Source: Eledone cirrhosa
Taxonomy: Eukaryota
Assembly: GCA_964016885.1 (NCBI GenBank)
Contig: OZ024743.1
Span: forward strand, 301,196,001-301,260,000
Direction: 5' to 3'
Length of the DNA stretch: 64,000 nucleotides
A program made the translations under genes and the position numbers. Positions 1,618 to 62,290 of the stretch are shown here, piece after piece. The notes below the pieces were generated by a model that saw nothing but the letters and a program-made list of their open reading frames with translations, was not told the DNA's origin and ran no database searches. Positions within the stretch are counted from its first letter, which is position 1. Each line of letters begins with the position of its first letter.

Positions 1618-2555
1618 TTACATATGTATATACACATACACATACATACACACGCGCACACACATATATGTATGTTCGCTTGTGTATATATATATATATA
1701 GAGAGAGAGGGGGTGTGCAGTGTCATTTGGAGAGTGGGGCGTAGTACATAGATAGAGGGCAGGTGGGGGCTAATGAAGATGGTGGTGTGCATATAAATAT
1801 ACTTATACACATACACACACACTTGCGATGGTTCGTGAAGGTATGTGTTGGCGACGTTAATCATGTTAATGATTGTTGAGGTATGGAGTTGTCCCATGTG
1901 GTGGTGGGGGTGCAGTTGTGGGGGACTAAATATATACAGGATCGAATATTACGATGGGTTACAGGTTAAAAAAAGTGACATAGGGAACACGGGGAAAAAA
2001 GTTTGTGGACGTATAGCGATGTGTGTTGTCATGCTGGTGGTGGCGGTGCTGGGGTGATATGTTCAACAGTATATATACATGATCAGATGTTACGGTGGTA
2101 AAGCTGAGAGAGAGGCCAGATATAACACAGTCGATCTGGGAGAGAGGGATGATATGTGTTGGTGATGTTAATGATGTTAATGATTGTTGAAGTATGGAGA
2201 TGTATCTAGAGGTGGCGGTGGTGATGTGTGCAACAGTACATTTACAGGATCGAGTTTTGCGAGGCGTTGTAGGTTAATGCAGGCAGAAGGAACATTGGGG
2301 ATTAGGGTTGGGAGTGTGGGATGGTAGACACATAGTGATGTGTGCGATGGTGGTGATGGTGGTGGTGGCGGCGGGATGATATGATCGATAGCATATTTAC
2401 AGGATCGGATGTTACTATGGATTACCAATCGTCCTTTCAATATATTACACTCTGTATAGCTCTACACCTCAACACAGAAGTGAACCTAAACATCGAGTGC
2501 TCTCCCGGGTGAACCAGCAGTAACTCCAAGTTACACTCCCTATATATATATATAT

Positions 2556-2755
2556 TAGTAAAAAGGAAAAGAAAATGGTGACAAATATTTCCCAGTGAGA
2601 AATAGTTTAATTAAGAATAAGTATAAATTAGTAGTAACTATTAGTTAATATTCAGTTTTAATTTTAAGTTTTTACCGGTTGCGCTCTCTTGCGGCTTGCA
2701 CAAATAGTTTTGAGATAGAGTGCTCGTGATTGTTGGTCTAATTTTTGGTCTAATT
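2556..2755 (-). mobile_element. Short diverged PLE 3'-end fragment, related to the 12398-12801 and 54218-54420 family
   Basis: Shares TTTTACCGGTTGCGC...TTTTGAGATAGAGTG with the 12.5 kb element; flanked by (TA)n. Confidence 0.6.
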
Positions 2756-3990
2756 ATATATATATATATATATATATATATATATATATATATATATATA
2801 TATATATATATATATATATATATATATACATATATATATAGTAAACATTAATTCTCTAATTCGATTACTTTATTGTATCTAATTCTATCTAAATCTTCTC
2901 ACATTCATCGGGGCGTTCATGTAGACAGAATAACTTGATGTTCATCAGCAGCATTTTTAGTGTTGAACGTCACGTTGTTTTTCCTGTCTCATGCATTAAC
3001 TTTGCATTTCATCGTTACGGGGTCGATAAAATAAAGTCCCAGTAATGTACTGGGTAATTGCTGGCCTTGTGCCAAAATAGAAACAATTACTCATATCTTA
3101 TATATGGTGGCATTATTGTATGAACATCACCAAGCATCTAAAACGATCATCGAAATGCCATGAGTGGCAGATCCTTGAAAATAATACATCTCTTCCTTTG
3201 ATCATGTGGATGCCCGGGCATCCACATGACCAAAGCTATTTGCTATTGCAGAGGGGACAAATGTGCAACTGTATCGAAAACAACAATGACAATGTTGGTC
3301 AAACCGACGACCATCAATCTTCGCAAATAAAACATTATTTTTGGATCTTGGAACGCCCAATATAATTACCAAATACGCCTATAAAAGACAAAATAATTTA
3401 CAGATGATCTTCCTAGAATTAAATGGGATACCTAAAAGCTGGAAGAAGTCACATGCACTGGATTTGTTATAAAAAGACAGAATGGTTGCATAGCAGTATC
3501 CAGAAGAATCATTAATATATTATAGATTTCAACTCTGTCTGAAAACGCTGAAATGTGATGTTGATGCCGTCAAAGATTTTTTATGACTGGTTGAATGAAC
3601 TAATGAAAGCAGGACCTACAGATGACTTTCACATCGTCTTAGTTGACTGGGTTGCAAATGTAGTCTCGGTAGATATGAGCAATTCATATATAAATATAAA
3701 CCGAAAGCTCTTTGTTTTTCAGTTTACAGGGTAATTCCTTTACCCTGGCATATGTTCGAACTAAAAATTAGATAGTTTGTGCAATCTCTATTTCAAACTC
3801 TGTATGTATACATATATAAATGTATCACACACACCAGTGTGTACTGAGTTACATATCGCTCGAGATATTATATATATATATATATATATATAGTGGTGGA
3901 ACACTGGAAGGTAATATCCGTAGTGGTAGAGCACTCAGTCCAAGGGACGAGTTAGGTAGAAATGGTTACACAACAGTTAGTTCACACATA

Positions 3991-4030
3991 CCGAGAACAA
4001 TTGTTTCATCTTCGCGGATCTTCAGCTCGG
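3991..4030 (-). ncRNA. Type I hammerhead ribozyme (minimal)
   Basis: CCGAG-CTGAAGA-TCCGCGAAGAT-GAAAC-AATT-GTT-CTCGG; stem I CCGAG/CTCGG; palindromic stem III. Confidence 0.75.
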
Positions 4031-4424
4031 GATGTGTATGGTGATAGGAACAGGAAGGCCAGCCGTACGAACGCGCATGCGCAGAAACTCGGTCACTTCA
4101 AATAGGCAATACTAGACTGCGTGCGGGAGGTGTAAGGGAGATAACTGCGAAAGTCCTGAAAGATTTTATAGTTATTCGTTCGTCCATACATAAGCCACAC
4201 GTCGGATTTCCCCTTGCGTATGGCTTGGACTTAGTGATGGCTTTCCATTGATGGAGTAGCCTATATTTGAGTCCTTGAGGGACCATACGTGGCTCGCGAG
4301 TTTCGTGGATGAACGTCTGTCCGGGTATCTGAAGATAGACTAGTATTGACTGTGTGAAGTGACCGAGTTTCTGCGCATGCGCGTTCGTACGGTTGTCCTT
4401 CCTGTTTCTATAACCATACACATC

Positions 4425-59950: not shown

Positions 59951-61180
59951 GCGTGAACAGATACCGCTCTGCATATTTGACATGTATACATTCCGTTTTC
60001 TAGTATTTTATTTTATCTTATTCTATTTTATTTTATTTTATTGTATGTACGTACACGCATTTTTATATATATGTGCCCCCATGTTATATGTGATTAGTTC
60101 ACGGCTACCACGTAGCTATTGCATTTATGCATATTGTGCATGCACTTTCAGGTTTATATCGCTACATGAATGGGTTGGGTCCAAGCCTCAGGAATGTTGT
60201 CTCATATGATTTTTATGCACCATGTGCACAGTTGCGTGTGTGTGTGTGTGTGGATGTGTAGGTATTCATCAAGCATGGGCTCATTTTCAGATGTATAAAC
60301 ATGACCAGGTGCATGTATGTATGTATGTGTGTCGACGCACATTCACATGCATGCATGTCTGGGTGGATGTACTTGCATGAACATGTCTGTGTAAGTGTAT
60401 GCATGAACATGTCTGTATTTGTAGATCCTCCATTCTTTCATCTGTATATATGAGCAGTCTCTTAAATATATACGCCTTCCTGTGTACAGTGTGTATGTGT
60501 AGATATGTGTATATTTATGAAAAATGCTATTTCAAGCATTCCTTTAAATACGTTCTTTTTACAGAGTTTTTCTTTTTGAAATGTGTATTTTTTAATGTAT
60601 TCTGAGGATGTGTTTTTCGGAAACGTTCTGTTCAATATTTTTCCATTTTTGAAAAAATGATTTCTAAGTATTCGCAACACATGCAATATTTACTGGGATG
60701 TCGCACATAATACAGTTGCGGGTGTGTACGTGATCGTTGTGGGTGAGGGCGCCTACAGGTTGAGAAGGCGGTGACAGGCCGCCAGCGTTTCAATCATACA
60801 AGCCTTTACCTCCTACAGTAGTAATTCCGATCTAAGAAACAACTTTGATTGACATGTGGCGAATGAAAGGAACAAAATATAGGACGGCCATGAGTGGTCA
60901 AAGACCGGGGACGTGTACAATTCTCGACCACTCACAAAATGACAACAGGATTTAAGCTGCCAAGTGAAGGCCGCTGGTGTAACTGGACATTTGAAAACTG
61001 TGCATCGTAAAATGAAAACGTATCTGAGCACCTTGCGATTTCAGAGTCAGTTTCGATCATTACATCGATCGTTCCTCGAGTTGGTCGCCAGAGAAAGGAT
61101 TTTAATATGCCTAATAAATGTTATTCGTCGCAACACTGATTCTCCGTTACTTATGTGATATATATATATATATATATATA

Positions 61181-61320
61181 ATAGGAACGAGTAGGACCCC
61201 GACGGCTGAGTTCAAGCCGTCGGGGTCCTACTCGTTCCTATTACCCACTCTACTACCCTAAGTATTGAGTACTTTGGTGCGTTATGGTCCACCTGGTTCC
61301 TTACCACATTTCCTTCGTTA
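61181..61320 (+). mobile_element. Miniature hairpin-plus-tail derivative of the 36-39.7 kb PLE family
   Basis: Perfect hairpin ATAGGAACGAGTAGGACCCCGACGGCT/AGCCGTCGGGGTCCTACTCGTTCCTAT plus 80-nt tail. Confidence 0.9.
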
Positions 61321-62138
61321 TATATATATATATATATATATATATATATATATATATATATATATATATATATATATATATATATATATAATATATATGT
61401 GTGTGTGTATATATATATATTTATTTAATGTTGGAAAATGTGTGGAATCGTAGGTATACTTTTCAATAAAGCAAAATAATGCCTGTATTTGTAGTTCTGA
61501 AAAAATTAATTTAATTTTATATTATAATTTTACGAATTGATTTTGAAGAACTAGATCTACAAAACCAAACTGTAAAATTATAATATTGCAAAATTAAATT
61601 AAATTGCTAAGAACTGCAAGTGAATTTATTCTTTTCCTTTTTTAAATACACAGACACAGGCACACACACCCACACACGCACACACACACAATTATATGTA
61701 TATATATAAAGGTGAATTCTAATCTAACGCTAATACCCAAGTAATAAATTTAAATTGTAATTAATATTCAACATATGAATGTGGATATTCCCATTAATGA
61801 GCTGGGGTCAGAAAATGCAATAATTCTGATCATGGAAAAAAGTATTATTATATACTTCATAATATTTGTAAATTTTAGATTTCGTATTGATCATTTAAAA
61901 AAATATATATAATTGAAGCCACTCTCGCAATAGAGCTTTTGACATTTAAAAGAAGGACGGAATACTTAAGCCTCTCAAAAGTATGCATAAAACTAGAAAA
62001 TAATTGGGAGATGTTTAATCAGAAGTGCATGATATAATTATTATATTTGAAGTGGTTTAGCAGAAACAAAATTACATTTAATTGGAAGAGAATTATGAAT
62101 ATAAATAAATATATAAAGATATATATATATATATATAT

Positions 62139-62290
62139 ATAGGAAAATGTTCAAGACCCCGACGGCAGGGCTCAAGCCGTTTTGACGACTATTTCTGGTC
62201 TAGATTCCTATTACCCACTCAACTACCCAAAGTATTGAGTACTCTGGTGCGTTATGGTCCGCCTGATACCTCACCACATTTCCTTCGTTA
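62139..62290 (+). mobile_element. Miniature derivative of the same family
   Basis: ATAGGAA start, inverted hammerhead remnant, TTCCTATTACCCACTC...CCTTCGTTA tail, in (TA)n. Confidence 0.85.

Follow-up and report, generated by a model that had tools for sequence, protein, structure and literature searches.

A duplicated bulged hairpin adjoining the ends of PLE copies in Eledone cirrhosa

Hairpin-bearing element families of the window

The window, a stretch of 64,000 nt from Eledone cirrhosa (GCA_964016885.1, contig OZ024743.1), harbours the 12 sites of a GAGTRCT motif that an earlier note had listed in PLE tails, all with the letters as given there and with only the site at 62234 placed one base early (its GAGT starts at 62237). 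The tails are dissimilar at the nucleotide level, as had been noticed, but do not represent 12 independent cases: the sites at 39684, 41752, 61265 and 62234 belong to one family (family A), those at 49877 and 54780 to another (family 4), and the 12 sites amount to eight families. The motif is one side of a bulged stem-loop, RCUC-[variable stem-loop]-UH-GAGY-RCU, of which it supplies the 3' strand together with the adjoining flank, and the stem arises by pairing of GAGT or GAGC with an upstream ACTC or GCTC, the partner that the earlier note had suspected. In full-length Hydra-clade PLEs this hairpin occurs twice, between the hammerhead motif and the ATG, and inserted copies have two types of end, a short end 5' of hairpin 1 and a long end 5' of hairpin 2.

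Family 2493 carries hairpin 1 with its 3' flank at 2449..2503 on the forward strand (ACTC-TGT...ACA-TC-GAGT-GCTCT); its long end meets (TA)n at 2541, 10 nt short of where hairpin 2 starts in the full-length family, which is represented with a Hydra ORF by L346 and L414. An extra GAGTGCTC at 2718 was matched by the hairpin descriptor, but is located in a different fold-back element without the pattern of short and long ends and was rejected. On the reverse strand, family 3938 shows a variant with a one-base bulge (3928..3952), a long end at 3892, 8 nt before hairpin 2, and an inverted arm whose short end, at 4496, precedes hairpin 1 by 6 nt; upstream of hairpin 1 a minimal type-I hammerhead core (CTGAAGA...GAAAC; 3991..4030, reverse strand) is predicted from a pattern scan with helices assigned by eye, and the full-length copy L418 has an ORF 54% identical to P0001. 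P0001 is the ORF of the young family H1, equally on the reverse strand, with hairpin 1 and flank at 12981..13006 (GCTC-TGT..ACA-TA-GAGC-ACTCT), a type-I hammerhead motif predicted in the same manner at 13048..13108 and the C-terminal endonuclease part of the ORF, including the Hydra-clade CxC-x5-C linker, at 14975..15544. The H1 hairpin is matched at E 1.2e-06 by a model built solely from metagenome loci.

All remaining hairpins reside on the forward strand. Family 32968 (32949..32978, upper stem damaged in this copy) has its long end at 33026, 10 nt before hairpin 2, and full-length copies with a Hydra ORF (L410-L412). In family A, a broken RT/endonuclease ORF (36962..38340, forward strand; tblastn with P0001, 31-44% identity) lies upstream of the tail with hairpin 1 and flank at 39666..39694 (ACTC-TACT..AGTA-TT-GAGT-ACTTT), the short end of this element being found on the inverted arm at 36094, 8 nt before the hairpin base. 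Three further copies are present at 41734..41762 (with GT as bulge), 61247..61275 and 62217..62245. The latter two have their short ends at 61180 (offset 5 nt) and 62141 (6 nt) and their long ends at 61319 and 62289, both 6 nt before hairpin 2. Family 4 is found at 49863..49887, with a long end at 49948, 7 nt before hairpin 2, and as a damaged copy at 54766..54790, with a long end at 54851, 7 nt before hairpin 2, and a short end at 54447, 4 nt before hairpin 1. Family 51679, in which no ORF was found after hairpin 2, has both hairpins and a hammerhead core; the inner part of its hairpin 1 (51625..51689) measures 50 nt. In family 52943, a hammerhead core predicted by pattern scan (52853..52899) is followed by a hairpin 1 at 52930..52953 with a lower stem damaged here and intact in other copies; its hairpin 2 was searched for and not found, no clear junction being recovered. 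Two other model matches, at 46678-46717 (E 0.14) and at 34689-34722, the latter inside a Neptune-type endonuclease coding frame and recurring in L389, L392 and L396, were treated as chance or coding.

A link to a Hydra-clade ORF exists for six of the eight families, one of the others being ORF-less and one without an assigned ORF; between families, the Hydra-clade ORFs share 32-65% amino-acid identity. The assignment as Hydra-clade PLEs is a putative one based on protein motifs: RW[KR], which is an N-terminal RWK in P0001, DK[TS] and a CxCx5C linker before the C-terminal endonuclease each occur in 33/33 aligned proteins, DKG in 0/33. As Pfam gave no family for P0001, its endonuclease is assigned from resemblance to the published description. 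In the portions available of that description (Craig et al. 2021, PMC8557442), the likeness comprises RWK, DKT, CxCx5C, C-terminal endonuclease and hammerhead as well as (TA)n insertion, an inverted 5'-truncated arm and a one-sided tail. Correspondingly, the elements of this genome insert into (TA)n as tandem and inverted copies with the tail on one side, and a hammerhead motif is predicted in the pLTR (window pattern scan at 4025, 13100 and 52853), the core of family A being deviant by eye; Rfam gave no match to the hammerhead motifs in the window or in 8 loci. The H1 tandem unit of 4.29 kb, extended because of a long simple-repeat 3' UTR, is above the 'generally shorter than 3 kb' of the Hydra clade, which is not disqualifying. 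The predicted structure of P0001 (pLDDT 87) has telomerases as top matches in a fold search (E 1.7e-08, TM about 0.3), results which confirm a telomerase-like RT only and say nothing on the RNA-binding site.

Covariation, duplication and distribution of the hairpin

The fold is supported by covariation, the check which the earlier note had proposed. In 59 of 62 motifs that had been anchored purely on sequence, Watson-Crick pairing is seen directly above the bulge (21 T-A, 38 C-G), compared with a mean of 32.6 and a maximum of 46 in 10,000 shuffles, and other bulge lengths fail in this test; the next pair up is Watson-Crick in 37/59 and involves four pair types. A tool count over 59 hairpins gave 91.1% paired versus 80.7% in shuffles, none of 500 shuffles reaching the observed value. 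On a tree of 44 ORFs, which contains no published reference sequence, the hairpin 1 pair above the bulge has undergone at least 7 switches, and no mismatch state occurs; at the stem base, a single change of both partners, seen in 7 families of this genome, has replaced G-C by A-T. The lower four pairs contribute little covariation because they are nearly invariant; RNAalifold predicted these four only and did not recover the upper stem. Pair 2 is broken in 18/58 sequences and pair 3 in 18/53. No Rfam match covers the hairpins in the window, nor was there one at E 0.05 in 8 loci.

The duplication of the hairpin extends well beyond the window. Two exact motifs within 190 nt before the ORF are present in 28/41 metagenome clusters, with any motif inside the ORF in 1/41; 12 families of this genome also carry two hairpins, and two-hairpin patterns are found 1,112 and 891 times in this genome versus 5 and 0 times in controls. 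The hammerhead core precedes hairpin 1 by 74-103 nt (20 metagenome loci), and hairpins 1 and 2 are situated 55-172 nt apart in the 5' UTR. The spacers between them score barely over shuffles (0.381 vs 0.349), and the tails do not align between families, let alone end to end as one family, yet stem, bulge and flank are kept with compensatory changes. ORF-less elements retain the hammerhead and both hairpins, for example as a 1.32-kb unit with a type-I hammerhead in head-to-tail arrays (L405-L406). A splice donor was discarded as the origin of the motif, with GTGAGT at just 1/12 sites, and equally a coding origin, as the sites precede the ATG and ORF-less elements keep them.

That the motif occurs above chance is evident from scans that far exceed their reversed controls. 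The hairpin-plus-motif descriptor gave 78 matches in 864 kb of unselected sequence against 5 in the reversed control. Genome-wide, GAGTRCTC-N28-58-(TA)5 occurs 32,283 times in forward and 175,561 times in reverse orientation, the control, the same pattern read backwards, giving 1,973 and 418; because one orientation recounts each TA register, we infer that the fair pairings are 32,283 versus 418 and 175,561 versus 1,973. On the other hand, the Neptune-type family of the window, the one such family analysed, has the motif in 0/30 loci between the endonuclease and the first (TA)n; its separate tail is without the motif, and ten long copies showed no full-length 5' junction. Just 13 core 8-mers are found in 584,131 characters of a supplement consisting mostly of Naiad and Chlamys consensi. 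Judged from this Neptune-type family and the Naiad and Chlamys consensi, the signal is not common to all PLE clades. Because six of the eight families are tied to Hydra-clade ORFs and the Neptune-type family in the window lacks the motif, the motif is a clade-wide inheritance under selection and not a convergence across PLE clades.

Element ends and how they might be set

The motif had been described as lying at a fixed distance in the tail, whereas the constant spacing is the one from the element end to the hairpin base, which stays at 4-10 nt while the distance from the base to GAGY varies from 15 to 56 nt among families. The five inverted-arm ends placed in the earlier note do precede the motif, by 19-25 nt instead of 18-24, and the motif does precede the (TA)n junction, by about 40-70 nt instead of ~35-70. 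In unselected DNA, 125/156 (TA)n junctions are located 4-10 nt 5' of hairpin 1 or 2 with a uniform expectation of 8.8, the offset window having been chosen post hoc after inspection of earlier end data; without the commonest family, 72/97 ends show this offset, and in metagenome loci 24/27 true ends are at the hairpin offset. Ends elsewhere make up 31/156 in unselected DNA and 3/27 in the metagenome. A TATATA-like tract is phased to the stem base, with 188 matches at -8..-3 versus 147.9 in shuffles (maximum 184), and other AT-rich tracts within the tail are rarely used as ends. Because ends fall 5' of either hairpin, the tail is the stretch between one hairpin's start site and the next. The fold by its covariation, the end offsets, the duplication, the phased TA tract and the hairpins kept in ORF-less derivatives are shown by these data, and the motif is indeed part of a conserved cis-signal of PLE tails, namely a covarying hairpin with fixed end offsets; what had been overlooked is the bulged hairpin itself, its second copy just past the long end and the setting of both ends from the hairpin base.

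As the best explanation, the hairpin probably acts in RNA as a positioning site for the RT, with nicked (TA)n pairing with the UA-rich tract 5' of the stem and copying starting there. A read-through transcript of a tandem copy would contain pLTR, hammerhead, hairpin 1 and hairpin 2, and the protein of the element might bind the invariant CUC/GAG stem, the bulged U and the RCU flank. After a nick in (TA)n by the endonuclease, the freed end would pair with the tract over 2-8 bases. A start at hairpin 2 would give rise to the long end, with a tail containing hairpin 1 and the motif seen at the outset, and a start at hairpin 1 to the short end, the DNA copy then being devoid of hairpins. As the short end is without a hairpin, the signal acts on a longer precursor; complex insertions with the tail on one arm only may reflect the use of one site per arm. 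Among the previously proposed uses, RT/endonuclease recognition is thus likely, while nothing here favours RNA 3'-end processing or second-strand priming.

Both strands fold the lower stem equally (mean pair probability 0.68 sense, 0.67 antisense) and the excess of G-U over C-A in the hairpins is only 11 to 5, values that do not distinguish between RNA and single-stranded DNA. A GIY-YIG endonuclease docked on the hairpin of a single-stranded DNA intermediate might cut the TA tract 4-10 bases away and trim the copy to its short or long end before joining, a course of events that we consider unlikely, although it accounts equally well for offsets, duplication and TA tract. In one metagenome tandem junction (L161/L185), extra TA repeats appear just before hairpin 2, as if the tract had been cut and extended as DNA. 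The hairpin 2 of one family, on the other hand, is capped by cUUCGg, a very stable RNA tetraloop, which together with the small G-U excess leans towards sense-strand RNA, and hairpin 2 has never been found copied at ordinary long ends. The tail has been ascribed to endonuclease-mediated resolution (Craig et al. 2021, PMC8557442), and cutting by the Drosophila Penelope endonuclease reportedly required the tail (PMC11167929); in the sole reconstituted PLE, however, both tail ends are RT start sites on RNA (PMC11167929).

In most of 23 metagenome loci, some 10-40 nt separate hairpin 2 from the first ATG, a location that would also suit operators for RNA packaging or translation repression; ends would then adjoin the hairpins only because priming farther 3' is prevented by bound protein or by the stem and (TA)n first finds a usable partner in the UA tract. 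The tract by itself could attract priming, but ORF-less elements retain both hairpins, and a tract phased to the stem base with other AT-rich tail tracts rarely used argues for positioning rather than a passive block, which makes this explanation improbable. Even less credence is given to a role of GAGYRCTC as a palindrome in double-stranded DNA, whether bound by a dimeric element protein or a host transcription factor or serving the internal promoter. The near-palindromic core occurs as GAGTAC, GAGTGC, GAGCAC and GAGCGC and presumably resembles NK-homeodomain sites. However, of the 62 motifs only 32 have C as the fourth base after GAGY (14 T, 10 G, 6 A), so that it is not the palindrome that is conserved; the upstream RCTC, in contrast, has been retained and covaries, and ends track the stem base, not the motif, over the 15-56 nt range. 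Predicted dimerisation of a PLE protein (PMC11167929) and an internal promoter of Penelope in the corresponding region (PMC2377424) are compatible with such a site. Neutral shared ancestry, with the tails as recent relatives and the motif as a leftover, would fit the confinement of every ORF-bearing family to one clade and the provision of 6/12 sites by two families, but can be dismissed almost entirely, as stem, bulge and flank persist between ORFs of 32-65% identity with unalignable tails and spacers near shuffle level, and the covariation and end-offset data exclude it.

Returning to the hairpin as an RT-positioning site in RNA, we lean slightly towards the more specific proposal of a telomerase-like template module. 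In this view a bulged stem, bound by protein and flanked 5' by an alignment tract that matches the microsatellite, would be present as two tandem copies, set both ends, create the tail and help to aim at (TA)n, and ORF-less passengers would have to keep nothing else. If so, these 35 nt would amount to a portable tag by which the RT of a eukaryotic retrotransposon starts internally.

Relation to known systems

PLE reverse transcriptases are the closest relatives of telomerase. In telomerase RNA with its template alignment region and protein-bound boundary stem, in the 3' UTR stem-loops of R2 and in the bulged epsilon stem-loop of hepadnaviruses, an RT-bound RNA structure sets the register of copying, and a few bases pair with the primer. 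With these RNAs the hairpin shares no sequence or Rfam likeness; unlike them, the stem is located 3' of the start, is uncopied and present twice, and nicked microsatellite DNA would serve as the primer.

The question addressed is how PLE RTs choose their start on RNA and why the one-sided tail is optional. A description of the paired hairpin was found neither in the literature searched nor in Rfam. The Hydra-clade description, in its available portions, gives the hammerhead as sole conserved RNA motif and a 30-40 bp tail (PMC8557442). In the published sea-cucumber and coral Hydra consensi of its consensus file, the paired hairpin is visible by eye and goes unremarked in the accessible text (PMC8557442). 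Stem, bulge, flank, 4-10 nt offset and TA phase provide exact predictions, for which the young ORF P0001 is intact, and the hairpin offset provides a simple rule for delimiting a repeat class of which this genome contains tens of thousands of ends.

The hairpins would equally be what non-autonomous hammerhead repeats must keep for mobilisation. Non-LTR retrozymes are ORF-less tandem repeats with a type-I hammerhead for which mobilisation by PLEs has been proposed (PMC7229834; bioRxiv 10.64898/2026.07.22.740005). The ORF-less unit of this genome resembles them in being tandem and in its hammerhead type, but measures 1.32 kb, compared with the 170-400 nt of retrozymes expressed as circular RNA, and keeps both hairpins, which are a candidate signal for mobilisation in trans.

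The closest experimental counterpart is the Poseidon PLE PAc, for which the available text describes two internal RT start sites in vitro that bracket the tail and require the RNA 3' of them (Frangieh et al. 2024, PMC11167929). This sole PLE reconstitution gave two start sites without a determinant, for which the hairpin is a defined clade-wide candidate. Common to both systems are two starts bracketing an optional tail downstream of the pLTR hammerhead and an AT-rich target (PMC11167929). In PAc, the start sites are within the ORF at an AC-rich stem loop, ~30-40 nt apart, the start site is said not to match the cut DNA, and the portions consulted name no conserved determinant (PMC11167929), whereas the determinant here is a duplicated bulged hairpin in the 5' UTR, with a (TA)n-matching tract before each copy.

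A bulged hairpin before the reading frame

All twelve sites at which the earlier note had placed a GAGTRCT-like word in tails of Penelope-like elements (PLEs) are present in the window, with the coordinate of 62234 off by one base. That the tails are dissimilar is correct in so far as no alignment is obtained between families, but the twelve sites represent only eight families, as four belong to family A and two to family 4. The proposed placement before (TA)n exceeds chance about 80-fold genome-wide, with 32,283 and 175,561 matches and 1,973 and 418 in the backwards control in 3.0 Gb of (TA)n-rich sequence, a ratio that depends on the inferred pairing of match and control columns.

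Full-length copies of the young family H1, reached via an endonuclease fragment (window 14975-15544) and having intact 714-codon frames, contain the motif twice before the ATG at a spacing of 121 nt, each time as one half of a bulged stem-loop, RCUC-stem-loop-UH-GAGY-RCU (hairpin 1 and hairpin 2). From metagenomes, 78 related loci were fetched, forming 62 clusters at 80% identity. In 41 clusters the sequence upstream of the ORF is 130 nt or longer: exact GAGYRCT occurs twice in 28 of them, once in 9 and not in 4, whereas an equal-length stretch inside the ORF contains one in 1/41. Judged by eye, most of the 13 clusters without two exact motifs have either an altered copy or a 5' flank that is cut short. 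RCTC lies upstream of 62 of the 65 motifs. When only sequence was used to set the anchors, the nucleotide directly 3' of RCTC is complementary to the third one 5' of GAGY in 59/62 (21 T-A, 38 C-G; shuffle mean 32.6, maximum 46), and the next two stem pairs are kept in 37/59 and 23/35; bulge lengths of 0, 1, 3 and 4 did not yield this result. The bulge reads TT in 42, TC in 11 and TA in 9.

Pairing between the motif and an upstream ACTC/GCTC, suggested in the earlier note, is borne out by covariation: for 59 motifs aligned with MAFFT (the other three of the 62, whose nearest anchor was ACTC, were dropped) the count is 91.1% paired versus 80.7% after shuffling (0/500), every slid control being lower; RNAalifold predicted only the four invariant pairs. 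A tree built from 44 ORFs requires 7 or more switches of the hairpin 1 pair immediately above the bulge, and none of its states is mismatched (TA 22, CG 14, TG 1; n=37). The pair at the hairpin base went from G-C to A-T a single time, in 7 of this genome's families, which is why GAGT was the form first noticed: hairpin 1 carries GAGT in 11/12 of the families listed and hairpin 2 GAGC in 12/12, families partly selected by a GAGC pattern. A covariance model trained on the metagenome loci alone recovered 9 of the twelve sites within its top 11 window matches, 4 with E < 0.01, and missed a one-base-bulge variant and two damaged copies.

Insertion ends relative to the hairpins

The (TA)n junctions, termed short end before hairpin 1 and long end before hairpin 2, were placed on 14 family references in 864 kb of unselected DNA (the window, 200 kb beside it and twelve 50-kb blocks). 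They lie 4-10 nt before the hairpin base in 125/156 cases (uniform expectation 8.8), namely 55/63 short ends and 70/93 long ends or beyond, with two long ends of a family without hairpin 2 omitted, and in 72/97 without family A; this interval was set after a first pass on selected loci (175/215 at 5-10 nt). The offset from end to stem base is maintained although the distance from stem base to GAGY varies between 15 and 56 nt. Of the 47 metagenome comparisons, 8 read through into a tandem copy, 12 reached the end of a contig and 27 gave a true end. In 20 of these 27 homology breaks off at -1 to +5 nt from the hairpin base and in 2 at -6; another 2, in which the pattern had not detected the hairpin, break at 2-5 nt on visual inspection, and the remaining 3 lie elsewhere. 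In-phase TATATA matches 5' of the stem at -8 to -3 number 188 in 59 hairpins versus 147.9 shuffled (maximum 184 of 10,000). The tail therefore runs from the end site preceding hairpin 1 to that preceding hairpin 2 and includes hairpin 1. The L161/L185 tandem junction has an expanded (TA)n run immediately 5' of hairpin 2, as though an insertion had used the alignment tract as its target.

Elements with and without the hairpins

RW[KR], DK[TS] and CxCx5C are found in 33/33 proteins (P0001 of H1 and 32 aligned relatives) and DKG in 0/33, so that the marks match those of the Hydra clade (RWK, DKT, CxCx5C) in Craig 2021 (PMC8557442). For six of the window's eight families (H1, A, 4, 2493, 32968 and 3938), full-length copies contain a Hydra-type ORF; their ORFs are 32-65% identical, while their tails do not align. 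Family 51679 combines a hammerhead core with both hairpins and has no ORF in the sequence examined; in family 52943 a hammerhead core is present, an ORF end lies upstream in 1/26 matches, and a 5' junction was sought but not found. The 3' UTR of H1 (window 13015-17815; L081) measures 1.7 kb, consists largely of (TA/TG/CA) simple repeats and contains a further hammerhead-like core some 1.5 kb 5' of the terminal core.

The six Hydra consensi of File S7 (PMC8557442) were inspected by eye: both hairpins are present in one sea-cucumber element, and hairpin 1 stands at the 3' end of a second such element and of one from coral. The entries from copepod and octopus are degenerate, and another coral sequence ends before the hairpin. 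The hairpin pair is a genuine cis-element shared across the clade, within an already known group of retroelements. It is apparently undescribed: no account was found by a full-text literature search, which missed most subscription journals, Repbase notes and some supplements.

Two-hairpin patterns matched 1,112 and 891 times genome-wide versus 5 and 0 in controls, and a Hydra-like N-terminus follows hairpin 2 in 42/60 loci examined. The remainder include family 51679 and an ORF-less 1.32-kb unit that has a hammerhead as well as both hairpins and is arranged in arrays, both head-to-tail and inverted (L405-L406, G000:C1:130,881,900-130,893,900); this unit is a candidate large retrozyme-like passenger of Hydra PLEs. 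A 34.6-kb array (G000:C1:14,234,974-14,269,556; L399-L401, L407-L408; marker matched by 527 units) repeats a 58-bp unit of TA tract, family-A-like hairpin 1, motif and about 20 more bases, and ends in an ordinary long tail; either repeated copying of a tail module or ordinary satellite growth could account for it.

The tail is different in a Neptune-type family with DKG, a CxxC linker and Pfam GIY-YIG (window 33740-34908, minus strand; L389), which shows no hairpin in 30/30 loci and in which a pattern search of 30 loci found no canonical hammerhead core. Its 3' end is often followed by a (TA)n run and then by a separate, roughly 33-nt tail. In L389 an 8-base word of this tail is complementary to one lying shortly before the ORF, an arrangement that may enclose the long end in a loop, as reported for the Poseidon-clade PAc by Frangieh et al. 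2024 (PMC11167929).

Other window repeats comprise a different fold-back element (12398-12801, 2561-2742, 54213-54423) whose 202-bp arms meet without a spacer in a perfectly palindromic centre, and which has no established connection to a PLE ORF; a dispersed repeat of about 150-190 bp, 77-90% identical and unrelated to the tails (8347-8509, 22589-22740, 33490-33688, 44632-44929, 48658-48807, 50196-50374); and broken ORFs labelled by eye as a putative non-LTR retrotransposon reverse transcriptase (9126-9981, minus strand).

Possible action of the hairpin

The hairpin is missing from the short end, therefore the signal acts on a longer precursor; it must pair and therefore must be single-stranded. 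Cutting of a single-stranded DNA intermediate by the endonuclease at the hairpins would fit the observed end offsets equally well, the two strands fold alike (0.68 vs 0.67) and G-U exceeds C-A by just 11 to 5; we nevertheless regard it as unlikely. The hairpins as an operator fit more poorly and are doubtful, a double-stranded palindrome is quite improbable, and neutral ancestry is hardly credible. Rather, the hairpin probably positions the reverse transcriptase on RNA, a reading drawn from the action on a longer precursor and, by analogy, from a Poseidon PLE, which was shown in vitro (Frangieh et al. 2024, PMC11167929) to start at two internal sites bracketing its tail and to require RNA 3' of them.
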